64,000 nt of DNA, from the NCBI GenBank assembly GCA_034530615.2, contig JAVRCV020000022.1, forward strand, positions 1-64,000. The letters are read 5' to 3'. The notes under the pieces are model-generated. The model ran no database searches and was not told the origin of the DNA. It was given only the letters and a program-made list of their open reading frames with translations. A program made the position numbers and the translations under genes. How positions within the stretch are numbered: the first letter of the stretch is position 1; each line of letters begins with the position of its first letter. The DNA is from Aulosira sp. ZfuVER01. GTDB lineage: Bacteria; Cyanobacteriota; Cyanobacteriia; Cyanobacteriales; Nostocaceae. Shown here in pieces: positions 10,620-50,624 of this stretch.

Positions 10620-10918
10620 ATGGCTTACAAAATCACTAGCCAATGTATTTCCTGCGATTTGTGTCTGTCTATCTGTCCTACTGGTGCAATCAAAATAGTT
10701 GATGGTAATCGCTGGATTGACCCCGAACTTTGCACAAATTGCGTCGGTAGTATTCATACAGTAGCTCAATGTAAAGCTGGTTGTCCTACCTGCGATGGTT
10801 GCGTTAAACAACCTAGCGATTATTGGGAAGGTTGGTTTGCCAACTACAACCGCGTTTTAGCGAAATTAACTAATAAAGAAGATTACTGGGAGCGTTGGTT
10901 TAACTGTTATTCTCAGAA
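10620..10918 (+). CDS. fdxN: FdxN bacterial-type ferredoxin, 5' part (interrupted by excision element)
   Basis: AGGAG RBS; CISCDLCLSICP and CTNC...CKAGCP motifs; frame continues at 50559 after excision. Confidence 0.93.
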
Positions 10919-11175
10919 GCTTTTACTATCAAATTAAAAAGATGCATTGAGGACAGTCCATCGCAAATGAAATGGCTACTCAACAATAAATGAAAATTGT
11001 AACTATTACTTACTGAAAAATGAATTTAACGCCAAAATGACGACTGGAATACTCATGCCGCCCATAAATTCTTGTATAACTAAACTGGTTAGCTGACACT
11101 CGCGGTACAAAAATATCTTGCTACATGACAACTGAAAGTGCAAATATAAGAACTAGAAATTTCAAAGAGGTAATT

Positions 11176-11454
11176 ATGGTTCCGCTGGAATGGGTTGTCA
11201 TGCTGGCGTGGAACAAAGAGTGTGGCGAAACTCTAAAATTATTGCGTGGTAAAAGGTCTAGACGCGAAATTGCAGATGCTGTTTCTCAGCAAGGTGTGGA
11301 ATGCTCACAAGAGTACATCAGAAAACTGGAAAACGGTGAAGCCGCCTCTGTTTCCACAAAAATTATCATTACAATTGCTAAAACCCTTGATGTTGAATTG
11401 ATTGAGATAATTTCTGACTTGCGTGTTGAAGTCACAAAAATAGTTTGTACTTAG
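11176..11454 (+). CDS. XRE-family HTH transcriptional regulator
   Basis: LKLLRGKRSRREIA...SQEYIRKLENG HTH pattern; GAGG RBS before ATG 11176. Confidence 0.8.
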   Translation: MVPLEWVVMLAWNKECGETLKLLRGKRSRREIADAVSQQGVECSQEYIRKLENGEAASVSTKIIITIAKTLDVELIEIISDLRVEVTKIVCT

Positions 11455-11570
11455 AGTTGCTTTTTGTACTCTGAGTTGTTATTTTAGATAATGTCAAAGC
11501 AAAAGGCGATCGCTCAGAGCCTGGAAAACTTGTGCGATCGCCTTTTAATCCTTTAACAGGAAATACCATT

Positions 11571-12242
11571 ATGACTCAAACCATCTATAGCTATCAACAG
11601 CTGCAACACAAATCCATAGCTCGACTTAAGCACATCTACAACGAAATGATCTGCAAGGTTGAGGTACTTGACAAGCGGTGCAAGGATGCTTGGATTAATG
11701 CCATAGCTGAGTATCAAGCTAGCAGAGTTCAGACAGTGGTTGATACTACCCTTGAAGAACATGCCACAGCCGAAGCTATTGCTCCGCAACTAATAACAGT
11801 AGCAATCAACTTCTGCCACCATGAAGTCTACGTAGGTAAAAAACTTATAGCTTACATGGTCTACGATGATGACGAATTTATTATGCAACCTTGGTTGGTT
11901 ATGGTTAAAGGCAAAGAAATTTTCCGCGCCACTACATCTGCCAAATGCTTGCGCTACATTCAATGGCATTACCAGGACGGCACACTCAACCCATTCGACC
12001 AAGTTGAATTGGCTGAAGTCCCAGAAGTCCCGACAATTATGAAAATTTCTTTTTACGAGCAAGAAGCATTTGTTGGTGAGCAACTGATAGCTAGGATTAG
12101 CTACGACTATGGAAATTATGAGAATCTATACTGGCGGGTGATAATTAACGCTAATGAGATTTTTCGAGACATTAGCCCAGCCAGATGTCACAGTTACATT
12201 AAACAACTGTACCAGCAAGGTAAACTCCCATTACAAGAGTAG
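11571..12242 (+). CDS. Hypothetical phage-like protein with a duplicated domain of about 70 aa
   Basis: Two copies of I.F...E..VG..LIA...YD.......W.V.....EIFR....A.C..YI...YQ.G.L; AGGA RBS. Confidence 0.7.
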   Translation: MTQTIYSYQQLQHKSIARLKHIYNEMICKVEVLDKRCKDAWINAIAEYQASRVQTVVDTTLEEHATAEAIAPQLITVAINFCHHEVYVGKKLIAYMVYDDDEFIMQPWLVMVKGKEIFRATTSAKCLRYIQWHYQDGTLNPFDQVELAEVPEVPTIMKISFYEQEAFVGEQLIARISYDYGNYENLYWRVIINANEIFRDISPARCHSYIKQLYQQGKLPLQE

Positions 12243-12490
12243 TTAGACCTAGAAAAACATTTGCTATCAAATAGCAATTTTTTGCCTACGACTGATATAT
12301 CTCTGCAATACTTGAACTCTTACCCCTAGAGAATAGCGATCGCTTCTTTCGGATGAGGCGCAAGTTCAGTAATTAGTAACAGTCTCAAACTAACTGTGAG
12401 CAGTAATACAAATTACTGCTTACTCCTACATGCATTTTTTCAAAAGTGATATTGCGTCAACGAAGTTTCACGTTGGCAAGGAGGTAAAAG

Positions 12491-13555
12491 ATGAGTGCTA
12501 TTGTCTCATCGAACAAAATATCTGTGCTTGTCATATTACGACGAGAGTATCTGGAAATTACTGGTAACTTCTGTGCTGCCAAGTTAATTGAATATTTCAG
12601 ACATTGGACAAAGTGGAAGCTGAAAAATCATCGCACTCCTTGGGTATATCAACCACTCAAGAAAATCTATGCTGACCTCATGGGTGAACATAGCTTACAT
12701 GTTATTAGGAGTGCGATCGCTTTGCTTGAGAGTATGGGTATTATCGAGAAACAGAAAAATCCAGGTAATAGGCAGGATAAAACTTGGCAGTATAAATTAC
12801 ACCATGATGTACTCAATCAGCTATTGGAACATCGCAAGGGCAAAACTGAACCTTCCAAATTCACTGTAGAATCACATCTTAGATCAGATCCTGAAACTTC
12901 TAAACCACAACAACATGCTGTTGAGGAAAAAAAGCATGAAAACGTGGAAGAAGAAGTTCTCTCACTCCAAACCGATATTTGCGATTACGATCAGGAGTCA
13001 GTTCGCCACGCTGCACAAGCAGAACAAACTAAAATTACTCACTTTGTTGATGAATCAGAACAAGATGACTCAACTGACGAAATAGATCCTGATAAAGACA
13101 TATTTTCCGAACCGGAAGTTGTTAGCGAAGCGGTAGCGAGTCTTCTCCCAAGGGGAGACGCTAAGAGCGAACGAGCGTCAGTCGATTCAAGTATGGATAA
13201 GCCCAGCAAGCGCGAGATTGCAGATATCTGCACTGAGTTGCGGCGACTGCGGATTAACCCTGAACCTTGTTTGGGGGTAATGAAGAAATATTGGAGGAAT
13301 GTGCAAGGTGCGATCGCTCGTGTAAAGGAAGCAATTCACGAGGAATGGTGCGATAATCCGACTGGGTTGTTTATCAATAGTTGCAAGAGTGGGGCTAAGG
13401 GGAAGAATACACTAACAAACGATGTGAGTGCTTGGTTTGAGTGGGCAAGGAAGCAGAGGATTGCGATCGCAATGTCACAGGGATTTGTGTATACACCTTC
13501 GGGGGATGCAGTGAAAATTGAGGAGATGATGAGTCAGTATCCGTTGCAAGAGTAA
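12491..13555 (+). CDS. Putative phage/plasmid replication initiator-like protein (N-terminal winged helix)
   Basis: AGGAGG RBS; ITGNFCAAKLIEYF...WVYQ...IRSAIALLESMGII resembles phage replication-protein N-termini; acidic linker; NPTGLFI C-terminal domain. Confidence 0.55.
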   Translation: MSAIVSSNKISVLVILRREYLEITGNFCAAKLIEYFRHWTKWKLKNHRTPWVYQPLKKIYADLMGEHSLHVIRSAIALLESMGIIEKQKNPGNRQDKTWQYKLHHDVLNQLLEHRKGKTEPSKFTVESHLRSDPETSKPQQHAVEEKKHENVEEEVLSLQTDICDYDQESVRHAAQAEQTKITHFVDESEQDDSTDEIDPDKDIFSEPEVVSEAVASLLPRGDAKSERASVDSSMDKPSKREIADICTELRRLRINPEPCLGVMKKYWRNVQGAIARVKEAIHEEWCDNPTGLFINSCKSGAKGKNTLTNDVSAWFEWARKQRIAIAMSQGFVYTPSGDAVKIEEMMSQYPLQE

Positions 13556-13797: not shown

Positions 13798-14298
13798 TCA
13801 AGAGCGAAAACTTGTATCTACTCTTTGTGTAACCTCTCCTCGCTCTACCTTCACCAAATTATCCCTGGCAGCAATAGTAATATACAAAGCAATTCCACAA
13901 TCAACTGCTGCCATGACCAAGGCTGCTGATAAAGTTTTAGTCCCTCCAGTGTAATCAGCCATAATCTCATAACTTGCTTCTTGCTGCAAATTACGGATGA
14001 AAGTGTAAATCTTGGGATAGCACTCGCTTAAATTATCTGGATTTTGTACCAGAATTAAATCTCGTTCTTGTTGAAAGCGATCGCCCAAGCTCACTTGTGT
14101 GGGAATATTGGGTAATCTTTCGATAACTTCTGTACCCCGACGCACTTCACAAGGAGTTCCTTCGCCGACGACTTGCGATTTACTACCTTTTTCACCATCA
14201 GAAGCAATAAAAATTACGCGATCGGGTTGCAAGCTGCGAATGGCTGTGATGATGGGTTGGAAGGAACCGCCAACGGTAACGAGCAGGATTTTGGGCAT
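13798..14298 (-). CDS. Stand-alone CARF domain protein (paralog of the N-terminus of the adjacent CARF-HEPN)
   Basis: TVGGSFQPI and ADYTGGTKTLS CARF motifs; no effector domain. Confidence 0.8.
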   Translation of the reverse strand: MPKILLVTVGGSFQPIITAIRSLQPDRVIFIASDGEKGSKSQVVGEGTPCEVRRGTEVIERLPNIPTQVSLGDRFQQERDLILVQNPDNLSECYPKIYTFIRNLQQEASYEIMADYTGGTKTLSAALVMAAVDCGIALYITIAARDNLVKVERGEVTQRVDTSFRS

Positions 14299-14315
14299 TT
14301 TTATAGATAATATTA

Positions 14316-15653
14316 TCAAATACTAATAACGTGAGGGAATTGCACTGACTGCAATTTTAAATTGCCAGGAACAACCGCAGCAATAGCAACCTCAATAAAT
14401 GGAATGACAACCTTGCTAAAACTTTGATAGTCACTATTATTAATAGGGCGCAAGCCATGAGCTAAAATTGAATAGTTACGGATTTTTAAAGCGTTAAGAA
14501 TAGCATTTTCTTTTTCTTGATACATTAGCCCCAATGTATCATTACTAAGTTCGCTTAAAAGTTCATAACTTTTTCTTAATGCAAGTTCAATTTTATTATT
14601 GCTTGGAGAACGCATAAATTTATATTTTTCTTGTACTAATTCTGGTAATTTTTCAATATTTACATCTCCAGTTTTGATTTGATATCTTTTCCACAGATGA
14701 ACCTGAGCTAATAGCTCTAAAGCACGGTATAATCTTGCCACAGCATCATCATAGCGTTCTAAAATAGCTCGACGTTGTGCATTGAGGAGTAAGTCTTCTA
14801 CAATTTCATATTCATGCCCTCTTATTTTATCAGGAGCTTGAAATTCATCATCAACAGCTTGGCAGAATGCTTCTCTACTACCCATGACTCGCTTGAGGAA
14901 TAGTGCTGCTGGTTTAATTTCTTGGTTTCCTATGTAACGACTCAAGTATGTCCAAGCTGTTGCATGATCAAATCTATCCCAAGCATCAAATCCACTACAA
15001 CAATCTAGTAATTGTTCTACTCTTTTGGTATCTTCAGGAGATAATTCAATTTTCTGTAATAGATATTTAAGTTCTGCGATCGCTGCTGGATAATTGTATT
15101 GTTCTAAATAACCTGGTAAAAATTGCTCTATTTTGCGTTGTACTGTAACTGAAGCAAGTGCAACCCTTCTGCTACGTTCTCCCCTTTCTACACGAATTAT
15201 ATTTTCACGAGTTGAGCTAGTAGTTAAATAGACAGTTAAAGCATAGTCTAGAGATGCTATAGCTAAAGCCACAGACATTGATTTAGTTCCACCTGTGTAG
15301 TCAGCAAAGATATCACTATCTAAAACTTCCACTTTTAAACTACGTATCTTTTCAGAGATAAGACGATAACATTCTGATAAATCATCAGGGTTATTTAACA
15401 AAACTAAATCTTTGTCTGCTTGAAAGCGATCGCGTAAATTGAGTTGTGTGGGAATATTTGGTAATTTTTCAATAACTTCGTTTCCACGTCTGACTTCGCA
15501 AGGTTTACCTTCACCAATTATTTGCGATTTACTTCCCTTTGAACCATCAGAACAAATAAACACAACTCTATTAGGTTTTAAGCTAGAAATAGCTGTAACA
15601 ATAGGTTGATGAGATCCACCAACAGTAATCATCAAAATTTTTGCCATACCCAC
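14316..15653 (-). CDS. CRISPR-associated CARF-HEPN ribonuclease (TIGR02710 / Csm6-like)
   Basis: TVGGSHQPI, DYTGGTKSMS, YDDAVARLYRALE and HEPN-like RNYSILAHG motifs. Confidence 0.88.
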   Translation of the reverse strand: MGMAKILMITVGGSHQPIVTAISSLKPNRVVFICSDGSKGSKSQIIGEGKPCEVRRGNEVIEKLPNIPTQLNLRDRFQADKDLVLLNNPDDLSECYRLISEKIRSLKVEVLDSDIFADYTGGTKSMSVALAIASLDYALTVYLTTSSTRENIIRVERGERSRRVALASVTVQRKIEQFLPGYLEQYNYPAAIAELKYLLQKIELSPEDTKRVEQLLDCCSGFDAWDRFDHATAWTYLSRYIGNQEIKPAALFLKRVMGSREAFCQAVDDEFQAPDKIRGHEYEIVEDLLLNAQRRAILERYDDAVARLYRALELLAQVHLWKRYQIKTGDVNIEKLPELVQEKYKFMRSPSNNKIELALRKSYELLSELSNDTLGLMYQEKENAILNALKIRNYSILAHGLRPINNSDYQSFSKVVIPFIEVAIAAVVPGNLKLQSVQFPHVISI

Positions 15654-15656
15654 ACC

Positions 15657-16430
15657 TTAACTTGTTGATTCTTTAAACTTCAACTCTGTATGTCCCATGC
15701 CCAAGCGTGTCTTAATTCCTGTCCCTGCAAATTGAGAATATTGCACCAACAAATTCGCTACATTCGCTAGTAAAGAATCTGATCTGTTAAAAATTTGCAG
15801 TGTGACATCACCTACAAAGCCATTGACATAACCTCTTTGTAATTGCCAACTACGTGTTTGAATCTTATGATTTTTCAGTAAAACTGCATTGCTTAAATAA
15901 GCAATTAGTTCATCACCGCCTAAATAAACAGGTGCAAAATTATTCCATCGCTCTAACCAATTGCGAAACATTAATGTTGGTATGGGAACTGGTAAGGTAA
16001 CACCGCCTTGAGCGAAAGCGGTAGGTGTGGTAAATTGCAACTTAAAGTTTCTAATCGCTTCTGGTTCATTTGCCACTAAGGTTGTGTAGAGTTCTTCATA
16101 ACTATTGATGTTATCTTCGCGGTTAATAACATTAAATTTAGCCCCAATAAATTCGAGTGATTTATCTAAATTAAGTGATAATATCGCTTTAGCAGCAGGT
16201 TCTTGTAATCCAGATAACGATAATTGATAAAATTCTTGTGGTTGAAATGTTAAAAAATCTCTAGAAGTACTATATAAACCGCAAATTGCCGAACAAGATA
16301 CGGAAGGAATTTTCTCTCCTATTTCTAAGTTCATTCTATTATGTAATAGCTTTACCAATTCCAAATGGTAGGAACGGGGTAATACTGTTGGTTCGGATAC
16401 TGTTAGCGTCCAAGTTGAGCGAATTATCAT
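15657..16430 (-). CDS. cas6: crRNA processing endoribonuclease Cas6
   Basis: F.TPTAF, GFVGDV and C-terminal GTGIKTRLGMG glycine loop. Confidence 0.95.
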   Translation of the reverse strand: MIIRSTWTLTVSEPTVLPRSYHLELVKLLHNRMNLEIGEKIPSVSCSAICGLYSTSRDFLTFQPQEFYQLSLSGLQEPAAKAILSLNLDKSLEFIGAKFNVINREDNINSYEELYTTLVANEPEAIRNFKLQFTTPTAFAQGGVTLPVPIPTLMFRNWLERWNNFAPVYLGGDELIAYLSNAVLLKNHKIQTRSWQLQRGYVNGFVGDVTLQIFNRSDSLLANVANLLVQYSQFAGTGIKTRLGMGHTELKFKESTS

Positions 16431-16444: not shown

Positions 16445-17725
16445 TTATAAAATTTTAAATTTAACCCATCCTGGTACAAAGCGAATTTCCCCATTGGAAT
16501 TAAGTACAGTTCGTCGTGACTTTGGAGCTTCAAATTTTGGAGCAGCAATACCGCATCGATTGCGAATTTCTGCGCGTAATTCATCGTCAAACAATAAATC
16601 AACTGTTGTTCCTGTCATCCCGCTACCCCAACCTAAGCGCAGAGTAAAAGGACATACTTCTGGATGATAAAATTCACGAACATAGTTAAAATCTAAGTTT
16701 CTTCCAGATGCTCTAGGATTATTTTTAATATCCTGCCAATAGTCATGTTCATGATCCCACTGGTCTTGACTGAAATCTTGACAAATTTTCAATAGTTCAT
16801 CTAAGGTATTAAAGGGTATTTTCATGCCTTGTTTATGCTTGAACCAAGCTAGCATTTCTGTATCTAATCTCAGAGTGAATTCGGTCTCTACATTACGTAC
16901 CATCTCTGCATAGATAGGAGCTTTATACTTAGCTAAAAAATCAGGAAATCTGCTAGAAACTATGACTTCAGGAACAATTGGTAAGTTTACAGGAATTTTT
17001 TGACCTTTTTTATTAGTTATCTTTTTTTCTATGAGTGCTTCACAATCGCTGATTTTTAGCGCTCGGAGAAAATCAGTATTTTGGCTGCGACCAGTGAAAG
17101 TTCTATCTTGATATGTTAATGTAAATTCTGAAAATAAACTCTCCATGAAGAGATGATCGTCAACAAATTTTTGGCTGTTTTTATTGCTCAGTTCTCCCAA
17201 GCGGGAGCGTAATTTTTTCTCTATCTCGCTTATCCGATTAGAAGCTGGAACTTGATAGCGATCGCTATATTTGAGAAGATGGTAAACAATCGCGGTTCTG
17301 ATCGCACCTTTAATAGAAGAACCTGGAATAAATAATCTTCCCATGCCATTGCGAATCATCGGCCTTAAATCTGTGATTCTATCTTCGGTGAGCTTTTGGC
17401 TAACGGCATATTTAGGGAAAATTAATTCACCATCTGTATCTGTTGCGTTCCACCACTGTTCGCCAAAGGCTTGTTTAAGAAGACTACTAATATCCTGACG
17501 TTCGTTAATTGCTTGGATATAATCATCTAAAAACCTTCCTCCCTGTTTCTTAAATGCTTTTGCTAGTGATTCTTGGTTAGGGAGATAGACTTTGTTGGCT
17601 GTCTGTACATATTCAAAGGGATTTAATCGGGATACTGCGGAGCCAATATGTAAAATCGGACTAGTCAGTCTGATTCTTTTTGACTCATAAACTGCTGGTT
17701 TTGTCAGGATAGGAGAAGCAAGCAT
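16445..17725 (-). CDS. csm5: Type III-A RAMP Csm5
   Basis: LHIGS, FIPGSSIKGAIRTA, RLGWGSG and PGWV motifs; gene order. Confidence 0.9.
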   Translation of the reverse strand: MLASPILTKPAVYESKRIRLTSPILHIGSAVSRLNPFEYVQTANKVYLPNQESLAKAFKKQGGRFLDDYIQAINERQDISSLLKQAFGEQWWNATDTDGELIFPKYAVSQKLTEDRITDLRPMIRNGMGRLFIPGSSIKGAIRTAIVYHLLKYSDRYQVPASNRISEIEKKLRSRLGELSNKNSQKFVDDHLFMESLFSEFTLTYQDRTFTGRSQNTDFLRALKISDCEALIEKKITNKKGQKIPVNLPIVPEVIVSSRFPDFLAKYKAPIYAEMVRNVETEFTLRLDTEMLAWFKHKQGMKIPFNTLDELLKICQDFSQDQWDHEHDYWQDIKNNPRASGRNLDFNYVREFYHPEVCPFTLRLGWGSGMTGTTVDLLFDDELRAEIRNRCGIAAPKFEAPKSRRTVLNSNGEIRFVPGWVKFKIL

Positions 17726-17729: not shown

Positions 17730-18821
17730 TTAGGAGTTTTCTACTTTAATTGGTAGGCTTAAACTAATACCACTGCGATATATAGGATGGGTTTTATAAC
17801 TACCATCTTGATTTTGCAGTTCGCTTGGTGTAACGTTAACGAGTCTCCCTCCGGGTTTTTCTGGAAAAACAGAGCCTTCAGTAAACATTCGCACCATTTG
17901 ACGGCGAATATTGCTTTGTATAATCCAGCCACCACGTTCTTGAATTTCGTAGTTACTTTTAGCGGTAATTAATTGCTCTAGTTGAGATATATCGTTTTCC
18001 CAAAATAAACTTATTAGGTAATGATGAGCAGATGCTTCTGAATATTCAACAATCTGCTGCCAATCCTCAGATAAATCTTGCCATTCAACTTTAAATCTAC
18101 CAGCACCACTAGAACGTTCGCCTCCCAAACCTTCATCGCCTAAAAGTTCCAATGCGTATTGCAATTTTGTTGCTAGCTCTGCATTTTCTTGAGAAAGTTG
18201 CAATAAAAAATATAGGCCTGATAAACTATTAATTTGGCTATTTTCTTGCTGCCATTCAAACTGGACAAATGCGGTGTGATAGAGGTTTGTTGCTCTTGTA
18301 ATTCGGTCTATAGCAATTTTGGGTATTTTCTCAATTTTAAAAGCTTGTTTGTAATCAAAAGTGCCTTCATCATCGAGTTCGCCACCGTTATCGCCGTTAG
18401 TTCTAGAAATCAGCTCATCGCGGTCTGCTGATGTAAATCCAACGCCTTGATACCAGCGCTTCCAGACTTTAAGTGGTAAGTAATTAAGTTTCTTGTAAGT
18501 CTTGAAAAATGCTAAATCATCACCCTGGGGATAATTAATAGGCGGTTTCAAAGGCCGAGGAAGATAATAAACTGTTCTTTTGTCAATTTGCCGATAAATA
18601 AAAGTGGAACTAATTCGCATTGGTGGGGGTGATTCGTGACAAAATCTGTTTAATAACCCATCAATTTCTTGTGAATACAACCTTGCATAGGCACTCATCC
18701 AAGCACTAAATAAAGTATCAGAATGTACTCGTTCAGTAGTTGATTCCATCCCGATACCCAATTCCCCAAAATGCGCTGAACAACGCTCAAAATTGAGTTT
18801 AACTAGTTTCCAAGTTGTCAT
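17730..18821 (-). CDS. csm4: Type III-A RAMP Csm4
   Basis: HFGE, HSDTLFSA, GLGGERSSGAG and FTEGSVF motifs. Confidence 0.92.
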   Translation of the reverse strand: MTTWKLVKLNFERCSAHFGELGIGMESTTERVHSDTLFSAWMSAYARLYSQEIDGLLNRFCHESPPPMRISSTFIYRQIDKRTVYYLPRPLKPPINYPQGDDLAFFKTYKKLNYLPLKVWKRWYQGVGFTSADRDELISRTNGDNGGELDDEGTFDYKQAFKIEKIPKIAIDRITRATNLYHTAFVQFEWQQENSQINSLSGLYFLLQLSQENAELATKLQYALELLGDEGLGGERSSGAGRFKVEWQDLSEDWQQIVEYSEASAHHYLISLFWENDISQLEQLITAKSNYEIQERGGWIIQSNIRRQMVRMFTEGSVFPEKPGGRLVNVTPSELQNQDGSYKTHPIYRSGISLSLPIKVENS

Positions 18822-20332: not shown

Positions 20333-20334
20333 AA

Positions 20335-41401: not shown

Positions 41402-42268
41402 ATGAATCAAAAAACAATTCCCCTACAGGCAGAAGAACTTAAACCAGGTATTTACAATCCAAAAATCTGGAGATTGAATGTACAAGGTAAAGAAAAGCCT
41501 AGCCAAAACGACTATATTCAAGCGTTTGGACTTTTACCAGATTTTGTTCTCCAGGCTAATGCAATTTTAATCTCTGAGCAAAAGGAGAGGGATTTAGGAG
41601 TATTAATTTCGTCTCATCGAGATGCTTTTAAGGCTATACATAAGTGGTTAGTTCACTTTGATAGCACTATCAATAATAGCTCTTCCGTTGATCCACCAGA
41701 GCTACATTTTAGTTGGGAGTTTGACTATAAACCCCATGCTAAACAATCTTGGGCTTTGCTAAATCTTTGCAGAGAAATTCTCAAACGCGACCAATTTGGA
41801 TGGAAGGAGTCAATTAAACATCTTTCTGCTGCTGAACTTTGGTTTAGCTGCGAATTTGAGAAATTGGAGAATACTTTGACAAGAACAGGAATTTTAGGAA
41901 CAAGTACTTGGAGGGGAAAAAATTCTGACTGTGATGCAATGTCAAAACGAATCGCCGAAAACTTTAATTCTCTTCCTTCACGAAGATTTGCAGAAGCTTG
42001 TAACTTTCCGGAACATCAAATTCAAAGTTGGGATTCTACAGACGAAGCTATCAGAGTACACGCTGAAAAAATTGCACAACAGGATATTGAGTTTAGTATT
42101 ATCTACCATGACTACATCAAGATTCGGAAACAGACTCTCAGAAGTATTCGCAATAATCCCAATCTACAGTTTGCTGCTTTAGGAGAAAATGGTCTTCTAT
42201 CTGTCGGTGGAAAGGGTAAGCGAGGCAAAGGTCGAAAACCTTCAAAGGGGTTTTGTAAACAAAAGTAA
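41402..42268 (+). CDS. Hypothetical protein with basic C-terminal tail
   Basis: 288-aa ORF with no recognisable motif; followed by hairpin AAATCTGCTCTGA...TCAGAGCAGATTT. Confidence 0.65.
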   Translation: MNQKTIPLQAEELKPGIYNPKIWRLNVQGKEKPSQNDYIQAFGLLPDFVLQANAILISEQKERDLGVLISSHRDAFKAIHKWLVHFDSTINNSSSVDPPELHFSWEFDYKPHAKQSWALLNLCREILKRDQFGWKESIKHLSAAELWFSCEFEKLENTLTRTGILGTSTWRGKNSDCDAMSKRIAENFNSLPSRRFAEACNFPEHQIQSWDSTDEAIRVHAEKIAQQDIEFSIIYHDYIKIRKQTLRSIRNNPNLQFAALGENGLLSVGGKGKRGKGRKPSKGFCKQK

Positions 42269-42583: not shown

Positions 42584-44125
42584 ATGATCATTGAATTAGA
42601 AAAAACCAAAATAATAGTTGGTTATGCTAGAGTTTCTTCTCGTGAACAAGCCGTTGATTCTCATGCCTTGGAACAACAGATAGCAAGACTTAAAGCAGCC
42701 GGAGCAACCGAAATATTTCAAGATATTCAATCTGGTAGTAAGGATAACAGACCTGCTTTGAAAGAATTGATGAAATCAATCATCGAAGGGAAGACGGATG
42801 AAGTCATCATCACTAGAATAGATAGGATTGCAAGGTCTTTACCAAAGCTACGAGAATGTATAGAAATTTTTGTAACTACTGGAGTAAATCTCCAAATTCT
42901 AGACCAGCAAATTGATTTGACGACATCCCAAGGCAAATTAATGGTTAATTTATTAGGCTCTCTTGCCGAATGGGAAACTGACCTTCTATCAGAACGAGTA
43001 CGTCATGGTAAAAAGTACCGTCGCGATAAAAAAGCAGCTAGCGAATCGTATCCTTGGGGCTATAAAACTGTTAACGATCAATATCAACTCAATGAAGCTC
43101 CATTTCTCTGTCTCATATCCAATAGACCATCTAATTATCGCGAACTTTACCAGGAAACAGATGTAACAAAACTAAATGGTTTAACAGTCAAGGAGATTGC
43201 CAGAGATTGCATTGATATTTTTTTTGATGCTAAAGGAGCTACTAGAGCTTTAAAAGTCATATTTCAAAAATATGGTTTAGCTAAAATCAATTATCGGAGA
43301 ACTGGTAGCGATGGGAAATTGCATTGGACAGTTACAGGATTTATTTGGTGGTTAAGTAATCCTGTGTTATGTGGTCATACTGCCTATCGGCAACGAATTA
43401 ATCTAGGGAAAGGTAAAAGAAAGAAGAATCAACGCGAAAACTGGGAATTTATCTATAATACACATCCTGAACACAGACTCATTACTGATGAAGAATACTT
43501 AGAAATTCAGCGCATACTCAAGTTTAATAACAAGAAAGGGCCAATCGCAAATCCAGAAATTGATGGGACTAACTCATATCGAGAATATGCGTATCAAAGT
43601 GGGCTTGTTTTTTGTGCTGAATGTGGTTCTAAATGCATTACTAAAAGTGCTAAACGTAGAGACGGAGGAAAATATTACTACTTTGCCTGTAGATACGCAG
43701 GTATGGGATGTAAAAATCTCATATCTACTCGGAAACAAAATATTGAGGATGTTCTGATTCAGACTTTAGTGCAACGTTCTCAGACTCTCGCAAGTGAGTC
43801 AGAACAATCTCCCTTACCACAGGAAAAGTCAGAGAAGTTAAAGGAATTGGAGTCTAGACTAGATGCTCTCAACAGAATTCCGGGTTTTGATCCAGACTTG
43901 GAAAACCTTAAGGCTAAGGTTCGTCAGCAAATAGAGGAGGAAATTAATCCTTTTATCTCTGATTCTATTTTGAATAAAAGTACAGAGGAAATTATTCGTG
44001 CAGGGAATAATTTGGCAATCTGGCACACACTTTCGCCTGATGATAAGGTCAAAATTTTTCCGCAGATTGTCCATAGGATCGCCGTCCAGAACAAAGAAGT
44101 TAAAGAAGTTACTCTCAAAATTTGA
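42584..44125 (+). CDS. Large serine recombinase (XisF-like paralog)
   Basis: GYARVSS catalytic Ser, TRIDRIAR, PWGY, recombinase domain, Zn ribbon CAEC...YFAC...C; AGGAGG RBS. Confidence 0.93.
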   Translation: MIIELEKTKIIVGYARVSSREQAVDSHALEQQIARLKAAGATEIFQDIQSGSKDNRPALKELMKSIIEGKTDEVIITRIDRIARSLPKLRECIEIFVTTGVNLQILDQQIDLTTSQGKLMVNLLGSLAEWETDLLSERVRHGKKYRRDKKAASESYPWGYKTVNDQYQLNEAPFLCLISNRPSNYRELYQETDVTKLNGLTVKEIARDCIDIFFDAKGATRALKVIFQKYGLAKINYRRTGSDGKLHWTVTGFIWWLSNPVLCGHTAYRQRINLGKGKRKKNQRENWEFIYNTHPEHRLITDEEYLEIQRILKFNNKKGPIANPEIDGTNSYREYAYQSGLVFCAECGSKCITKSAKRRDGGKYYYFACRYAGMGCKNLISTRKQNIEDVLIQTLVQRSQTLASESEQSPLPQEKSEKLKELESRLDALNRIPGFDPDLENLKAKVRQQIEEEINPFISDSILNKSTEEIIRAGNNLAIWHTLSPDDKVKIFPQIVHRIAVQNKEVKEVTLKI

Positions 44126-44147
44126 AGGTTTATTCCAATTTGGCATT

Positions 44148-44528
44148 ATGAACACTCAAAAAATTTTCGATTTCAATAAACTTAGATGCGAAGTTGCTAT
44201 GCAACAAGCTCTACAGGAATGGCAACCACAGCCTAGAACTTATGGTATTGGATGTCCCAGGTGCAATCCCACTCGGCTTGTGAAAATTGGTAGACTTGAT
44301 GGAATACAAAAATATGTATGTAATGACTGCGATCGCACTTTTAAAGAAAAACCAAGATTTGTATGTGAATGTTTAATCCCAGGAACTCAGGTAAAGTGCC
44401 AATCATGTCCTCAGTTCAAGGAGTTTTTAGGCATAGTCAAGCAACAGATAGATGAATTGCGTTCTTTGAGCTTTCAGGAGTTAGAAAACCTCCAATCTTC
44501 TTATACTGTGGCTGAAACACTTGATTAA
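44148..44528 (+). CDS. Zn-ribbon protein (IS1 InsA-like ribbon plus extra Cys cluster)
   Basis: CPRC...KIG...G.QKYVCNDC.RTF, then CEC...CQSC. Confidence 0.65.
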   Translation: MNTQKIFDFNKLRCEVAMQQALQEWQPQPRTYGIGCPRCNPTRLVKIGRLDGIQKYVCNDCDRTFKEKPRFVCECLIPGTQVKCQSCPQFKEFLGIVKQQIDELRSLSFQELENLQSSYTVAETLD

Positions 44529-44956: not shown

Positions 44957-44995
44957 TAACGATACTGGCGTTGCTGAATGAAGGGATGAATCGAT

Positions 44996-45067
44996 ATGTC
45001 ACAGAGATTCGTGTATACGCCTTCGGGGGATGCGGTCGAGATTGGGGAAATGATGGAGAGGTATCCT
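44996..45067 (+). pseudogene. Remnant of the 3' end of a paralog of the Rep-like gene 12491-13555
   Basis: 57/72 nt identity to 13472-13543; MSQRFVYTPSGDAVEIGEMMERYP vs MSQGFVYTPSGDAVKIEEMMSQYP. Confidence 0.75.
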
Positions 45068-45386
45068 ATTATGGGCTTGGTTTGCCAGTCTTAAGCGATC
45101 GCATCAAAAATCACTAGCGAAACATCATTACCCACCATCCCATTTGAGAGACGCGATACATTGCCTATTCCAAAAAATGCAGCGTTATCTCAGTTGCGAT
45201 CGCATATTTGATAAACTGGTTTTAATGATGAGGTACACCCAAAAGCAATCGCATTTTCACTCCATCTTAATTGCGATCGCCAGCAAACTGAATCCTTCTG
45301 GCTAGCTCTTCCAAAAAGAAGTTACAATCAGATGATTGTCTGACAAAGCTAATTAGTTCTCATCTGGAAACAGACTGGAGACTTTT

Positions 45387-45983
45387 ATGACCCCAGCAAC
45401 AATAGCAACACTTACAAAAGAATTACCCCTGTTGTTTGAGGTACTGACCTGGAGAGAGTTTAAAGCCGTTGAGCAGTTGTTAGACCGTCCAGGATATCGG
45501 TTGTCTTTCCTGGATGGTGTTTTGGAGATACGCAGAATGCCTGGAGAACCACACGAAACCGTTAAGGAAAGGATCGGCGCACTGTTGGAGCTTTACCTTT
45601 TGATGGCAGGATTTGACTTTACTCCAACTGGCTCAATGACTTTGGAGAGTGAATCGGGTGCTGTCAAGCGAGAGGCAGATAAATCCTATAAACTGGCTCC
45701 AGGTCGAGTGCGTCCTGATTTAGTAATTGAGGTGGTGTTTACCAGTGGCGGAATCGACAAGCTAGAGGCATATAAGCGGCTAAAGATTCCAGAGGTATGG
45801 TTTTGGGAAGATGGTGTGTTAGAAGTCTATCACCTGCGCTATGAGGGCAATGCGCTTCACTATGAAAGAGTTACCAATAGTGAGGAATTAAAAGGGATTG
45901 ATCTAGATTTGTTATTACGCTGCATTAATATGGTGAATCATGTGGATGCGATCAAGACTTTTCAACAGGCGCTGGTGAAATAG
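45387..45983 (+). CDS. Uma2 family protein
   Basis: DGVLEI, EADKSY, PDLVIEVVFTSG and IPEVWFW motifs. Confidence 0.9.
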   Translation: MTPATIATLTKELPLLFEVLTWREFKAVEQLLDRPGYRLSFLDGVLEIRRMPGEPHETVKERIGALLELYLLMAGFDFTPTGSMTLESESGAVKREADKSYKLAPGRVRPDLVIEVVFTSGGIDKLEAYKRLKIPEVWFWEDGVLEVYHLRYEGNALHYERVTNSEELKGIDLDLLLRCINMVNHVDAIKTFQQALVK

Positions 45984-46009
45984 CAATCTGTTGTTTGATA
46001 TCAAAAACT

Positions 46010-46588
46010 CTATTCTGCTTCTGATTCCAATACAACCCCTTCATACAGAAGTGCGATCGCAAATTCAAATTCGATGCTGGATAGGGTAATAATATCTCCC
46101 TCAGTGTAGGGGTAGTAAAGCCACATTCTTCCCTCTCCGCGACAGTAGCGTTCAATGGAGATTGTTTCGGAATCTATCAATAAATATTCTTGTAAAGAAG
46201 GCATTTTCAGATAATTAGTGAATTTTTCGCCCCTATCTTTACTGCTTGTACCAGGGGAGAGAACTTCGGCAATTATTTTTGGGTTTTGAATAAATTTCCG
46301 AGCATTGAGGTCTTGAGGGTCGCAGCTGACAACAACATCAGGATAATAATAAGGACTTTGAGGTGTAACTTGCACTTTCACATCCAACACATTTACTCGG
46401 CAACCTCTAGCACTTAAATGTGGATATAAGGCTCTATAAAAATTAAGTGCAATGTCATTGTGGGGAATTGTACCACCTGTCATCGCAAAAACTTCGCCGT
46501 TGACGTATTCGTAGCGAAGGTCTTGCTGGGGTTCCCATGCGAGATATTCCTTGATGGTCATTTTTTGTGGTTGTTGGGAGCCTACCAT
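46010..46588 (-). CDS. Uma2 family protein
   Basis: RYEYVNGEVFAMTGG, YYPDVVVSC, EVLSPGT and LQEYLLID motifs. Confidence 0.9.
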   Translation of the reverse strand: MVGSQQPQKMTIKEYLAWEPQQDLRYEYVNGEVFAMTGGTIPHNDIALNFYRALYPHLSARGCRVNVLDVKVQVTPQSPYYYPDVVVSCDPQDLNARKFIQNPKIIAEVLSPGTSSKDRGEKFTNYLKMPSLQEYLLIDSETISIERYCRGEGRMWLYYPYTEGDIITLSSIEFEFAIALLYEGVVLESEAE

Positions 46589-46886
46589 AGCAAGATTTTT
46601 CGAGTTTGTTTTGATTTTAGCTTGGAGGGTATGGGAACAAGCACGAACTGCCTGAGTTTGCCTTTTGGTAGCGCATGACCTTGGTTAAAATTCAGATGTA
46701 TACCTGAAGTAGTTCTTACAACAAGGCTAGAAAAAGCGATCGCTATGACTACAGCAACCAAAAAGCTCGACTGTATCCTATGCATTTTCGATATGCTGGA
46801 TCTAGAAAAGCAGTCAGCAGATTTATTGGGAGGTATGTTTGACAAAGATCAACTTTCCTTTATGTATCTGGTTAAAACAGTACCGT

Positions 46887-47417
46887 ATGGTTGTTAGTGG
46901 TATGCTACTAGCGATAGCCATCACAGGCTGTAATAACTCTGGCACATCACAACTATCTTCTGTGAATAGCCCATCGGTTGCCCATATATCAGACACATCT
47001 AGTCCAACTTCCTCACCAGTGTCTCCCACACCAAACACTGCTGATAAGCCACTTAAGCAAGAAGCAGTTCGAGTCATTCGTGACTATTACAGTGCAATCG
47101 CTCGTCACGACTATAAACAAGCCTACTCAGCTTGGCAAGGAGATGGCGCTGCTAGCCAACAATCATTTGAGCAGTTTCAGCAGGGTTTTGCTAATACCGC
47201 ATCTGTTGCTGTAGAGGTTGGAGAACCAGGTATATTAGAAGGGGCAGCAGGTTCACTGTACATTAATATTCCGGTTACTGTTACTGCCGTCACTGCTAAT
47301 GGAACGCCGCAGCGATTTCGCGGTAGCTATGTGTTACAGCGAGTGAATAATGTTCCTGGCTCAACTCCAGAGCAGCGTCAATGGCATATATACTCAGCGA
47401 AGATTACTCAAGTGTAA
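46887..47417 (+). CDS. Putative lipoprotein
   Basis: Lipobox-like AIAITGC after a hydrophobic stretch; Ser/Pro linker; YYSAI..DY..AY..W and EGAAGS domain; alternative start at 46839. Confidence 0.7.
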   Translation: MVVSGMLLAIAITGCNNSGTSQLSSVNSPSVAHISDTSSPTSSPVSPTPNTADKPLKQEAVRVIRDYYSAIARHDYKQAYSAWQGDGAASQQSFEQFQQGFANTASVAVEVGEPGILEGAAGSLYINIPVTVTAVTANGTPQRFRGSYVLQRVNNVPGSTPEQRQWHIYSAKITQV

Positions 47418-47740
47418 TTAGGGAACTCCAAAAAATAAATTATTTCCATTTCTGCACTACATCACTGTTTCGCTCCTCTAAGACTACTTAAACAATTCAA
47501 GAATGAATTTCGCACTTTAACTAAGCCAGTGGCGTAATGGCAAAAGCCGATCAATTGAGTAAATCTGTTTACAGATATTGTTTAATATACTTAATGGAGT
47601 TATCCACTTTACCTTTATCATTAGCAACGCTTAATGATAAAGGTAATTGCACATTGATTGCACTTTTATACTTACTTAATTCCAAAATTGAATTGTCCGA
47701 TCAGTTTAAAGTATTACTCGTCCGGTCATTTAGGTATCTT

Positions 47741-48556
47741 ATGAAAAAATTGATTAGAGGCTTAAGAGAATTCAAAAGTAGTTATTTTAGTGCTAATGAA
47801 GAACTGTTTGAACAACTTTCTCATGGTCAAAAGCCTAGGGTACTATTTATTACTTGTTCAGATTCGCGTATAGATCCAAACCTGATTACACAAGCCGGGT
47901 TAGGTGAATTATTTGTTATTCGCAATGCAGGCAACATTATTCCACCATTTGGTGCTACTAATGGCGGTGAAGGTGCAACAATTGAATATGCTATTCAAGC
48001 ATTAGATATTCAACAAATTATTGTCTGTGGCCACTCACATTGTGGTGCCATGAAAGGGTTAATGAAGTTAGACAGCTTGCGGGTAGAAATGCCGCTTGTA
48101 CATGACTGGCTCAAGTATGCAGAAGCAACCCGACGGCTGGTGAAAGACAACTACAGCCACTACGAAGGGGAAGAACTTTTAGAAATAATTATTGCTGAAA
48201 ATGTACTCACCCAAATCGAAAATCTACGGACTTATCCGGTGATTCGCTCTAAACTCTACCAAGGAAAACTTAGTATTTATGCTTGGATTTACCAAATTGA
48301 GGCAGGAGAAATTTTGGCATACGACCCACAAAAGCACGCCTATGTTTTGCTCCAACATCAGCTTCCTCCATCAGAGATAGATGATACGTTACTTAGCCCA
48401 TCTTTAACTGGCAATGTGGAAATAGATTCTGTTGAAACTCAACAACAAGCGTATCTATTACCCCGGGAACTCCCTAGTTCGGAACATGAATGGTTTCCAA
48501 TGACAGTGCTATCTCCAGAACAAATGGAGCGAATTTATCGAGGCTCAACAACATAG
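47741..48556 (+). CDS. ccaA: Beta-class carbonic anhydrase, CcaA/IcfA-like
   Basis: CSDSR, RNAGN and HSHCG zinc motifs; C-terminal LSPEQMERIYRGS resembles the CcmM-binding tail of CcaA. Confidence 0.85.
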   Translation: MKKLIRGLREFKSSYFSANEELFEQLSHGQKPRVLFITCSDSRIDPNLITQAGLGELFVIRNAGNIIPPFGATNGGEGATIEYAIQALDIQQIIVCGHSHCGAMKGLMKLDSLRVEMPLVHDWLKYAEATRRLVKDNYSHYEGEELLEIIIAENVLTQIENLRTYPVIRSKLYQGKLSIYAWIYQIEAGEILAYDPQKHAYVLLQHQLPPSEIDDTLLSPSLTGNVEIDSVETQQQAYLLPRELPSSEHEWFPMTVLSPEQMERIYRGSTT

Positions 48557-48569
48557 TAGTAATTTCCAA

Positions 48570-48909
48570 ATGGCTACAAGCGATCGCAGTTGCAGATGGA
48601 AATGTTACTTGGCAATTTGCTTAGTGATCGGGGAAGCGATCGCCTTTTGCAATTCTGCACTAGCCCAAATCGCACCTGATCGCCAATGGTTCTCAAATAG
48701 AGGCAAGTACTTTGGGGTCACAAGCTGGCGGAACTTTAGCGATCAATGCTAGTGAGCGGTTGGATGTTAGTGGTACATCTGTTGAAGGTCATTCCACTGG
48801 CTTAGGTGCTATTGTTTACCCAGGAGCAACTGGGAATGCCGGAGATTTGAAAATTAACACAGGTGAGTTGCTGATTCGAGATGGGGCAGAGGTAGGGGAG
48901 GAAATGTGA
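48570..48909 (+). pseudogene. Internally deleted remnant of a filamentous-haemagglutinin-like exoprotein gene
   Basis: Signal-like N-terminus ending ALAQIAPD, then out-of-frame AGGTLAINASE..GATGNAGDLKINTGELLIRDGA repeat. Confidence 0.65.
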
Positions 48910-48966
48910 CAGTCACAGCAAACAAAATTCAATTGATTGGTACGTTTAGCAGTGCGATCGCAATAT

Positions 48967-50511
48967 TTAGTAACGATACTCAATTGCTGTAACGAAGTTC
49001 CCATCTACGCAGATTTTTTTAACGCAGCCATTGAGGATTGCTCTTTTATCTTGAGCATTAAGTCCTTGCCAGTAACTTTTATTTGCAAAAGCCCTTATAA
49101 TGCGTTCCTTCGCAATCAAGGATTCTCTGGATGCATTATTGATTGCTCCCAGTGCGATCGCAATTTGTTCTTTGAGATCATTTTTGATTTGTTCGATGGC
49201 TGAACTTGGTGGTAAGGTTTCCAGATTATTCAGCGATGCGCGGAGAGTTTTGACTTCTGGGGGTTCCTCTACAATAGGTGGCTCATCTGTTTCCACCAAG
49301 TTCGCTAACCTTTCGGCTTCTTGTGCCAATAAATCTACCACTTGGATATCTAATATTTTTGATGAAATCATAGTTTTATTGCTACAGTTGCCAGCTTTAT
49401 ACAAACGGCACTGAAAATAATAGATAGCTTGTCCCTGCTTATCTACTCGTTTTGCATGGCGCGTCATTGAACCTCCACAATGAGCGCATTTGATTAAATT
49501 AGAAAATGGGTTGATTTCGTTATCTTCTCTGGAAGCCCATCGGTTATGACGATTACTGCGGATCGTTTGTTTTATTTGCTCGTGTTCGGCGCAAGTAATG
49601 ATGGCTTCATCGTCGTGGGTTCCCCATTTTACCTTCCACTCATCAAAATGTTTGCGCTTTCCCTTTGATTTCACATAAGTATCAAAAGGTAAGCCTCCTG
49701 CATAGACAGGGTTGACTAATAATGCTTTTAAACCTGGAATTGACCATCTCAATCCAGACCAAGGATAACGCAAGGGGTGGTTAGCTTTAGCTGGTGTAAA
49801 TACAATTGTATCTAAGTCGTCATCGCTGATAATTCGTGAAGATTTCTCTGGTTTATGCCAATCAAAAGCTTTTGTTTCTATGCCAAAATCTGAGTGCAAT
49901 TTACGAACGGTAGCCGCAACGGAACCACACTCAAAAAAAGTATTAAAAATATATCGAGCTACGTCAGATACAGTTAACTCTCTTCGCTCTTCTAACAAGC
50001 AAACGCATGGTGAATCATCGCGGACATATTTATCGTTGTGGATGCGGTATCCTAATGGCGCAACTCGGTGACTTTTTCCTTGAGTTACACGATGACGGCG
50101 TTCGCTCTTTAACCTCTCCGTCACCATTTTGACCTCAAATTTGGCAGCAGCAAGCAACATATCAATAGTTAATTCTCCGCCCAAACTGTCTGGATCGACT
50201 CCTTGATCTAAAGCGATGAGTTTAATTCCTTTGGAACGCAATACTTCCAACAATGAATAAAACAACCTTGATGATGAACCAATGCGATCAATCCGGGTAA
50301 ATTGCAGAGATACTATCTTACCCTTTGCAGATGTCTTCAAGTCATTGATTAATTGTTGTAGTCCTTCCCTGACTTCGGTTGTCCGTGACTGAATATCCCA
50401 GTATACTTTTGAACAACCAGCATTTTGCAAGCGTTCTATTTGTTTACGCAACGCACCTTTATCTGTTTGCTGCTCCTCACCGCTGACCCTTGCGTAACCC
50501 CAACTTTCCAT
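48967..50511 (-). CDS. xisF: fdxN element excision serine recombinase XisF
   Basis: MESWGYARVSGEEQQTDKGALRKQIERL N-terminus; 514 aa; start 48 bp from the right recombination site. Confidence 0.96.
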   Translation of the reverse strand: MESWGYARVSGEEQQTDKGALRKQIERLQNAGCSKVYWDIQSRTTEVREGLQQLINDLKTSAKGKIVSLQFTRIDRIGSSSRLFYSLLEVLRSKGIKLIALDQGVDPDSLGGELTIDMLLAAAKFEVKMVTERLKSERRHRVTQGKSHRVAPLGYRIHNDKYVRDDSPCVCLLEERRELTVSDVARYIFNTFFECGSVAATVRKLHSDFGIETKAFDWHKPEKSSRIISDDDLDTIVFTPAKANHPLRYPWSGLRWSIPGLKALLVNPVYAGGLPFDTYVKSKGKRKHFDEWKVKWGTHDDEAIITCAEHEQIKQTIRSNRHNRWASREDNEINPFSNLIKCAHCGGSMTRHAKRVDKQGQAIYYFQCRLYKAGNCSNKTMISSKILDIQVVDLLAQEAERLANLVETDEPPIVEEPPEVKTLRASLNNLETLPPSSAIEQIKNDLKEQIAIALGAINNASRESLIAKERIIRAFANKSYWQGLNAQDKRAILNGCVKKICVDGNFVTAIEYRY

Positions 50512-50558
50512 AACAGCGCATAGACACAACCTTTATTATATTTGATAGAGGATACTTC

Positions 50559-50624
50559 TATTCTCAGAAATTCTCTGAGCAGTTGCAAAAGCGTCAGCCC
50601 CAAGTGATAGAAGCAAAAGCATAA
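50559..50624 (+). CDS. fdxN: FdxN 3' part (YSQKFSEQLQKRQPQVIEAKA*)
   Basis: In frame with the 5' part after recombination at TATTCTCAGAA; directly upstream of nifS. Confidence 0.85.
   Translation, partial: YSQKFSEQLQKRQPQVIEAKA

Follow-up and report, generated by a model that had tools for sequence, protein, structure and literature searches.

What follows, cell type by cell type, when a bacterium keeps its immunity genes on DNA that is deleted from its somatic cells? The question is posed by the model strain Anabaena PCC 7120 (hereafter PCC 7120) and again by a 64-kb window, the whole stretch analysed here (positions 1 to 64,000 of contig JAVRCV020000022.1), from the draft assembly (83 contigs) of Aulosira sp. 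ZfuVER01. Inside fdxN, between nifB and nifS, lies an element of 39,651 bp that carries a type III-A CRISPR-Cas system with a fusion of reverse transcriptase (RT) and Cas1, RT-Cas1. Judged by its sequence, this is an insertion within fdxN of an XisF-type element with intact ends and an intact recombinase. We consider it highly probable that the 39,651 bp are an old fdxN interruption element of the XisF family, which interrupts this gene in many Nostocaceae, mostly inherited vertically and excised by its own recombinase, with the CRISPR system as plain cargo. The arrangement is not new in kind, being a further example of that on record for PCC 7120. It is a second kind of example, with Csm effectors and in another genus, of adaptive immunity placed on DNA that is deleted from the somatic cells of a multicellular bacterium. 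Below, G000 denotes the studied genome, other G numbers denote genomes of its family, and L numbers denote named relatives. The comparison sample held 151 family genomes including G000, and a later search covered all 389 family genomes.

An interruption element inside fdxN

The window contains two and only two copies of the 11-bp core TATTCTCAGAA, one at 10908-10918 and the other at 50559-50569, each on the plus strand; the chance expectation is 0.06, and none of 100 shuffles had two or more matches. The left copy falls within an fdxN-like open reading frame (ORF; Pfam Fer4) directly after nifB. This 5' part of fdxN (10620-10918, plus strand), 96 codons and the core repeat, was recognized from its Fer4 match, its translation, and its alignment with the FdxN proteins of G036, G039, and G034, and in the integrated state its frame extends within the element as far as 10937. 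The right copy precedes nifS by 190 bp, and after nifS come nifU, the globin gene glbN, nifH, and nifD. Together with the 3' part of fdxN, 21 codons and a stop, the core of the right attachment site (attR) spans 50559-50624 (plus strand). On its element side, the left attachment site (attL; core at 10908-10918, plus strand) carries CTATCAAAT; its partner at the opposite end, in inverted orientation, is ATTTGATAG, and this pair is common to the nine elements compared.

Joining the two sites by script at the core repeat gave a predicted FdxN of 117 aa. The initial annotation had claimed that the join would restore such a protein upstream of nifS, and the strongest check of this comes from the empty sites of three relatives. 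In G036, G039, and G034, where fdxN is uninterrupted, the two flanks map onto the gene with an overlap of precisely the 11-bp core, and the FdxN proteins of these genomes (114-117 aa) read WF(N/D)CYSQ(K/T)FSEQLQKR across the junction, the same as the predicted rejoined protein. Both halves of fdxN are open and conserved, and the two cores are identical. TATTC starts the core at both ends in nine interrupted genomes, the sole exception being TAGTC at one end in G096. We take TATTC to be the published core of the PCC 7120 fdxN element, and the sites in G381 agree with it.

The recombinase gene at the nifS-proximal end (48967-50529, minus strand) is divergent from nifS and encodes an XisF orthologue, which scores 523 bits on the XisF equivalog model NF041201 (cut-off 375 bits) and retains the catalytic GYARVS; its likely start is an ATG six codons inside the listed ORF. 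This terminal XisF is 88-98% identical in 20 of 22 named public loci, the remaining two standing at 53% and 80%. It adjoins nifS in 18 of the 22; of the other four, three are cut by contig ends and one is the locus at 53% identity. As a minor feature of the upstream flank, a tract of CCCCAAT-type heptamers lies between nifB and fdxN at 10547-10606 (Tandem Repeats Finder, period 7, 6.7 copies).

A type III-A system with RT-Cas1

The cas genes, effectors, and three arrays extend from a csm6 fragment (13798) to the end of array 3 (37229), or 23.4 kb, which agrees with the figure of about 23.5 kb given in the initial annotation. On the minus strand lie a CARF-only fragment paralogous to the Csm6 N-terminus (13798-14319; 60% identity, with an 89% identical copy in G237), a Csm6-type CARF-HEPN effector (14316-15653; TIGR02710, 233 bits; RNYSILAH, an R-x6-H motif, at residue 392), and the Cas6 endoribonuclease (15657-16430; Pfam PF10040). 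The same strand carries csm5 (16445-17725), csm4 (17730-18821), csm3 (18864-19913), csm2 (19916-20365), and the gene for Cas10/Csm1 (20335-22668; 777 aa, GGDD cyclase motif at residue 564). The next gene (22728-23600, minus strand) encodes a Csx3/Crn3 ring-nuclease domain (residues 1-80) with a C-terminal extension of ~200 aa. On the plus strand follow a CRISPR-associated WYL regulator (23956-25431; TIGR03985, 347 bits; PADLOC WYL, 563 bits) and a CARF protein of the membrane-anchored kind (25531-26385; PADLOC CARF_2M).

The type III-A label is correct, because the five Csm subunits all pass the cut-offs of the NCBIfam type III-A equivalogs (Cas10/Csm1 588, Csm2 69, Csm3 223, Csm4 304, and Csm5 71 bits). 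Csm6, Csx3, Cas1, Cas2, and RT-Cas1 are likewise above curated cut-offs, and Cas6 lies above its Pfam cut-off (63 vs. 25 bits) and below that of NCBIfam (30 vs. 58.65). These matches uphold the earlier description of a complete RT-Cas1 type III-A locus on an XisF-type fdxN element, with one correction: its Cas10 has no HD domain. Given a Cas10 with GGDD and without HD, interference would be expected to proceed via cyclic-oligoadenylate signalling and RNA cleavage by Csm3, not via a Cas10 DNase. In such a scheme the Csm complex would recognise target RNA, and the GGDD cyclase of Cas10 would make a cyclic-oligoadenylate signal acting on Csm6 and on the membrane CARF protein. Csx3 would damp that signal, and RNA cutting by Csm3 would work in parallel.

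Three CRISPR arrays are interleaved with the adaptation genes. Array 1 (26474-27726, minus strand) comprises 14 repeats (26474-27461), of which the distal one is degenerate, and a leader of ~265 nt (27462-27726). Two small genes of no named family, conserved alongside cas2-cas1 (28521-29193), separate it from cas2 (29324-29605) and the stand-alone cas1 (29602-30642), which together span 29324-30642 on the minus strand. Array 2 (30869-32338, minus strand) has 17 repeats (30869-32073) and a leader (32074-32338) that is 83% identical to the first. An HTH-DUF4384 protein (32409-33158, minus strand), conserved beside RT-Cas1 in relatives, is followed by the RT-Cas1 fusion itself (33731-35752, plus strand; 673 aa), with RVT_1 in residues 61-268 (121 bits), Cas1 in residues 338-627 (Cas_Cas1, 295 bits), and the catalytic YxDD intact as YGDD at residues 215-218. 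Leader 3 (35753-36100), which resembles leaders 1 and 2, and array 3 with its 16 repeats (36101-37226) occupy 35753-37226 on the plus strand, inverted relative to the other two arrays. A TPR-CHAT protein of 1269 aa (37281-41090, plus strand) comes directly after, and TPR-CHAT genes adjoin RT-Cas1 arrays in seven of seven relatives checked, on or off the fdxN element.

Of the 14, 17, and 16 repeat copies in arrays 1-3, 13, 17, and 16 are within 6 mismatches of the consensus; the spacers number 43 in all and measure 33-46 nt. The repeat is best read as GTTTTCAAA(A/T)CATTACCCCTCACGGGGATGGAAAC, ending in ...CCCCTCACGGGG and then ATGGAAAC, that is, in a hairpin and an 8-nt handle, and the expected 5' handle of the CRISPR RNA is AUGGAAAC. 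In the chosen orientation, all three arrays have a degenerate repeat at the far end and a conserved leader of ~300 nt at the near end, so that the minus strand is the reading strand of arrays 1 and 2 and the plus strand that of array 3. Acquisition of new spacers would fall to Cas1-Cas2 and to RT-Cas1, the latter being in principle able to use RNA. The same repeat core occurs in two further arrays off the element, at C52:100839-101709 (12 copies) and C73:56565-58029 (19 copies). A tblastn search of the genome turned up no other Cas10/Csm set, and the element-borne Cas6 and Csm genes probably serve these arrays too.

Two side observations concern this region. Inverted arrays 2 and 3, with their similar leaders, bracket the HTH and RT-Cas1 genes (30869-37226). 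In both G237 and G381 the corresponding segment is turned around, and the repeats of the third array are of another type, which suggests that the HTH and RT-Cas1 segment was inverted by recombination between arrays. The TPR-CHAT protein, which is caspase-like, is reminiscent of the TPR-CHAT partner in type III-E systems, and it has paralogues on contigs C33 and C52.

Comparison with PCC 7120 and other known systems

A paper stating the link between CRISPR and the fdxN element was not found in the literature searched. The abstract of Hou et al. 2019 reportedly describes a CRISPR-Cas system in the fdxN element of PCC 7120 and analogous arrangements in other strains, on elements excised in differentiation; its supplements might list strains like the present one. 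Published locus data place the RT-Cas1 gene and the type III-D cas6 of PCC 7120 on its fdxN element. There nifS is all1457, xisF is alr1459, and nifB is all1517 (bioRxiv 2024.05.17.594646); alr1468 encodes an RT fused to Cas1 (PMC1462988); and the type III-D Cas6 is Alr1482, of 377 aa, with two arrays split by the RT-Cas1 gene (bioRxiv 2020.04.14.041012).

For the layout we used G381 as a stand-in for PCC 7120, because its features fit these reports. The G381 element, in a third genus, measures 59,428 bp and carries Csx10 (638 bits), Csx7 paralogues, Cas10, a 377-aa Cas6, an RT-Cas1 85% identical to that of G000, HTH-DUF4384, a partial TPR-CHAT, and arrays that have the repeat core in common with G000; in it, xisH and xisI stand next to an XisF that is 90% identical to that of G000. 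The PCC 7120/G381 arrangement and the present one share the insertion site in fdxN, the TATTC core, and an XisF orthologue that is nifS-proximal and divergent from nifS. In both, arrays sharing one repeat core lie on either side of RT-Cas1, and the HTH-DUF4384 and TPR-CHAT genes stand alongside. They differ in that the present effector is of type III-A (Csm1-5, Csm6, Csx3), whereas the other is of type III-D (Csx10/Csx7), and in that the present element is shorter (39.7 kb vs. ~59 kb), adds a stand-alone Cas1-Cas2 pair and a second XisF-family recombinase, has no xisH/xisI, and has the HTH and RT-Cas1 segment inverted. The variant features of the present element are thus a Csm effector in place of a III-D one, the lack of xisHI, and two recombinases.

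A closer counterpart is found in G237, from another genus, whose element of 36,660 bp has nearly the same genes and order at protein identities of 60-97%. The genes run as follows: csm6 fragment, Cas6, Csm5-2, Cas10, Csx3, WYL, CARF, array, Cas2-Cas1, array, RT-Cas1, TPR-CHAT, the counterpart of the gene at 41402, the second large serine recombinase (LSR2), zinc-ribbon gene, and XisF. It differs in that the block begins directly at attL, with three backbone genes missing; in that RT-Cas1 and the HTH gene point the other way and the repeat of the third array is a different one; and in that a stretch with Uma2 and carbonic-anhydrase genes is missing.

Two broader comparisons can be made. Silas et al. 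2016 reportedly described the RT-Cas1 type III system of Marinomonas mediterranea MMB-1. In both that system and ours, an RT fused to Cas1 stands beside a type III effector (with YGDD intact here), whereas the present RT-Cas1 is known from sequence alone and lies on an element predicted to be excised during development. The other heterocyst interruption elements (among them nifD/XisA, hupL/XisC, nifK, and nifH) likewise split a gene needed in heterocysts and carry their own recombinase (Hilton et al. 2016, PMC4874684). As described in the same survey, length and cargo vary greatly within one variant of interruption element. In the text of this survey, which covers 101 interruption elements, with three fdxN elements in 38 genomes, CRISPR has 0 occurrences (Hilton et al. 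2016, PMC4874684).

Chromatin immunoprecipitation sequencing (ChIP-seq) in PCC 7120 placed three HetR peaks in the RT-Cas1/array region of its fdxN element (PMC4192349). The 'asr1469 promoter' primers of that study contain the starts of both CRISPR repeat types, and CRISPR goes unmentioned in the paper (PMC4192349). The 'small peptide gene' of that study may therefore be located in an array or next to one.

Cargo bay and distribution across the family

The genes around the block suggest a family plan, in which a left end and a variable cargo bay would be followed by a conserved right core. At the left lie three plus-strand backbone genes common to the elements of same-genus G069 and G142: an HTH regulator (11125-11454), a gene of no named family (11532-12242), and a gene with a weak match to a phage replication-initiation family (12491-13555). 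The right core would consist of a gene of no named family (41402-42268), LSR2 (42584-44125), a zinc-ribbon gene (43998-44528), all on the plus strand, and XisF. LSR2 belongs to the XisF family (536 bits on NF041201), is 29% identical to the terminal XisF, and keeps the catalytic serine in GYARVS. Between the two parts stands the CRISPR-Cas and TPR-CHAT block of 27.7 kb (13477-41189, by blastn breakpoints). It is absent from the 13.5-kb element of G069, which has the same backbone and ~480 bp in place of the block. In the present element, the cargo bay is filled by the 27.7-kb type III-A system, which we read as ordinary accessory cargo. XisF abuts the sequence to 44966 in G096, G018, and G030, so 44967 onward is a separate, second variable stretch (44967-48966, by blastn comparison).

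The initial annotation had called for a comparison of fdxN-element cargo across related genomes, and such a comparison finds cas cargo in three of the 389 genomes. Six other complete elements, with both ends on one contig, could be taken from the sample. They measure ~13.5, 24, 27, 40, 41, and 52 kb (the last with 11.7 kb masked), and none of the six has a CRISPR array or cas homologue. The cargo consists of two-component and sigma genes and xisH/xisI in G142; lipid and polyketide-like genes, RTX proteins, and a porin in G060; a VWA/PP2C/kinase/dynamin-like set in G018; non-ribosomal peptide synthetase and ABC genes in G096; and a polysaccharide cluster in G030. The family thus joins a conserved recombinase core to a cargo bay that differs widely by lineage.

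Within the 151-genome sample, nifB was found in 144 genomes, RT-Cas1 (E<=1e-80) in 38, and recombinases at least 81% identical to the terminal XisF in 11. Across the 389 genomes, RT-Cas1 (E<=1e-200) was found in 67, including one of the 14 other genomes of the genus (G069). Once nifB positions had been added for the 33 carriers new to this search, 14 genomes had RT-Cas1 and nifB on one contig, and RT-Cas1 lies between nifB and nifU in three of the 389: G000, G237, and G381. In the other 11 of the 14, it is at least 108 kb from nifB or on the wrong side. G056, considered as an element case, was rejected: its RT-Cas1 is 153 kb from nifB, but nifU comes directly after nifB.

Predicted excision in heterocysts

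By analogy with PCC 7120, the element's own large serine recombinase would cut at the TATTC-containing cores, and would do so late in heterocyst development. The order nifB-fdxN-nifS-nifU would thereby be restored, and the element would become a circle in a cell that undergoes no further division. The vegetative cells, acting as the germ line, would keep the CRISPR system in the chromosome. No effect of heterocyst excision on immunity is known. That excision takes place in heterocysts is a well-founded inference, because the recombinase is 90% identical to that of G381, whose 59,428-bp element fits the published PCC 7120 element; the timing is carried over by the same analogy. Such interruption elements are described as excised (Hilton et al. 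2016, PMC4874684; PMC4192349).

Several findings weigh against an excisable element with a working immune system as cargo. In PCC 7120, xisH and xisI are reported as required for excision of the fdxN element (Hilton et al. 2016, PMC4874684), and the present element lacks both: none of the 15 PF08814 matches in the genome is on the window's contig. Searched by tblastn with the XisH and XisI of G142, two of nine elements carry them (G142 and G381). LSR2, a second XisF-family recombinase with no assigned role, counts on the same side. The contigs assembled from three public runs (Logan) contain no joint or loose end of an excised form at attL; such contigs drop rare forms, so this says nothing on excision. 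Canonical type III-A Cas10 has an HD nuclease domain, and here none was found, the match beginning at position 87 of 753 in the profile and residues 1-150 containing no HD dipeptide. The activity of the arrays finds no support in spacer targets: a megablast of 26400-37300 against 50,697 phage records gave no match, and none of the 43 spacers matches the host over more than 21 nt. Most elements of the family are without xisH/xisI and often have a further recombinase like XisF, a point of relevance to the control of cell-type-specific excision.

Two side observations concern the recombinases. The three-gene module of LSR2 adjoins XisF in G000, G069, G096, G030 (51% identity), G237, L025, L031, L036, and L037, most of them without xisH/xisI, and LSR2 might be a partner recombinase, comparable to CcrA and CcrB in SCCmec. 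Two more large serine recombinases, 50-52% identical to XisF, are encoded at C56:39593-41134 and C12:13718-15259 and may mark other interruption elements.

Descent of the element and its cargo

All statements made here on vertical or horizontal descent take identity to G000 as their sole measure. Percent identities of XisF and nifB are, respectively, 97 and 96 in G142, 96 and 97 in G069, 96 and 98 in G060, 92 and 93 in G018, 91 and 91 in G096, 91 and 84 in G237, 90 and 88 in G381, 88 and 88 in G030, 83 and 86 in G081, and 81 and 85 in G017. The identity of the terminal recombinase thus declines roughly in step with that of nifB. In our reading the element is old, has come down mainly by vertical inheritance, and is readily lost through germ-line excision. 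No phage structural or conjugation genes were found in it. The initial annotation had proposed that the immune system may travel horizontally with the element as defence cargo. Because XisF identity follows nifB and transfer genes were not found, this is not supported, and the six cas-free elements point the same way.

The block behaves differently. The RT-Cas1 of G000 has 89-91% identity to copies from three other genera; four or more of these copies (G036, G241, G299, G218) are far from fdxN or on another replicon. Its identity to both element-borne copies (G237, G381) is only 85%. The adaptation half and TPR-CHAT are syntenic, at 73-91% nucleotide identity, with non-element loci in five of five genomes tested; in G030 the syntenic adaptation locus lies 0.5 Mb from that genome's own fdxN element. 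The csm genes are matched elsewhere only at ~70% nucleotide identity. On these identities, an existing element is more likely to have captured the block than the element is to have been transferred as a whole.

Was the capture recent? That the block came by recent horizontal transfer into a pre-existing element, for example by recombination with a homologous carrier and with the element not serving as vehicle, has in our estimate a little better than an even chance. The single RT-Cas1 among the 14 other genomes of the genus, in G069, is only 75% identical and stands 1.3 Mb away from the nif genes of that genome, and full-length RT-Cas1 is found in none of five named close relatives whose XisF is 88-98% identical. 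The 89-91% identity of RT-Cas1 to the three other genera also contrasts with nifB, which is only 84-87% identical to the g50 genomes among them, with the limits that nifB of G036 stands at 95% and that for G345 there is no nifB figure beyond 88%. To the right of the block, the backbone is nearest to G069 (LSR2 91% vs. 88% in G237; XisF 96% vs. 91%), and the contrast between the syntenic off-element adaptation half and the remote csm genes also fits such a transfer. However, this evidence consists of identities, with which loss in 13 members of the genus is compatible, and no flanking repeats or transposase are present at the block edges.

Alternative readings

Is the association itself selected? 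The RT-Cas1 type III module could be an ancestral passenger, kept since heterocyst excision alters its dosage, expression, or targeting. The fdxN elements of G000, G237, and G381, from three genera, all hold the module, each time in the company of HTH-DUF4384, RT-Cas1, and TPR-CHAT, and in G000 and G237 the conserved recombinase core comes directly after it. In PCC 7120, the HetR ChIP peaks are at all1467/alr1468, asr1469/alr1470, and all1471/all1472, and a fusion of the asr1469 promoter is reported as transiently up in heterocysts (PMC4192349). On the other side, the arrangement is confined to three of 389 genomes, against 11 shared-contig genomes with the two genes apart or in the wrong order and six complete elements without cas genes, and the RT-Cas1 of G000 is nearer to off-element copies than to element-borne ones. 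The window has no match to a hetP-type HetR site at up to three mismatches. Heterocysts do not divide, so events on the circle are not inherited. We therefore regard a selected association as improbable. Equally doubtful is its fuller form, in which the XisF family and the RT-Cas1/TPR-CHAT module would be old partners held together by selection, excision a developmental immunity switch, and LSR2, in elements that have no xisH/xisI, the replacement for these as the partner setting direction or cell type of recombination. If true, such a switch could act via cas dosage, via expression, or by uncoupling the arrays from chromosomal transcription.

Also unlikely is a smaller element, nested in the fdxN element and mobilized by LSR2, that would carry the cas block. 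In its favour, LSR2 is a complete recombinase of the XisF family that retains the catalytic serine, and the block together with LSR2 lies between the two copies of a 77-nt repeat (13466-13542 and 44990-45066; 79% identical). The second repeat copy encodes a C-terminal fragment like the end of the 12491-13555 gene, as integrating elements often leave. The repeat is real, but the comparison with G069, G096, G018, G030, and G142 gave no clean nested ends, and the candidate was rejected. In G069, G096, and G237 the LSR2 module is present, but the second repeat copy or the 12491 gene is missing, the sequence to 44966 abuts XisF directly in G096, G018, and G030, and G142 is without LSR2 yet offers no clean empty site.

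There remains the assembly of the element. The initial annotation had named misassembly of the CRISPR locus into this position as a ground for rejecting its proposal. The Logan contigs from the three runs, which are possibly the source reads of the assembly itself, measure 20,677 nt in two runs and 16,243 nt in the third. Without any difference, they run from nifB-fdxN through attL and the left block edge across all csm genes, thereby bridging the left junction, and break only at array 1; the coverage is of positions 9000/10199-26441 only. An assembly artefact or a dead, non-excising insertion, to which a draft genome and an element without xisH and xisI might point, is very improbable given these contigs, the same layout on a single 8.2-Mb contig in G237, the open and conserved fdxN halves, the identical cores, and an intact recombinase that is 88-98% conserved in named relatives.

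Other genes in the window

The second variable stretch begins with the fragment (44990-45066) that resembles the C-terminus of the product of the 12491 gene. It continues with two Uma2 nuclease-like genes (45387-45983, plus strand, and 46010-46588, minus strand), with matches to PDC-S17 and PDC-S03, two defence candidates of PADLOC, a gene of no named family (46839-47417), and a beta-carbonic anhydrase gene (47537-48556). Further Uma2-family nuclease-like genes lie outside the element, at 2999-3592 and 6165-6902.

Downstream of the element, nifD stops after 460 codons, and the 11-mer GGATTACTCCG at 56307-56317 recurs 19,063 bp downstream, on the same contig and beyond the window (C22:75370). 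We take GGATTACTCCG to be the repeat of the PCC 7120 nifD element. Pentapeptide-repeat, SDR, and other non-nif genes follow nifD, and this looks like a nifD interruption element of ~19 kb that starts in the window.

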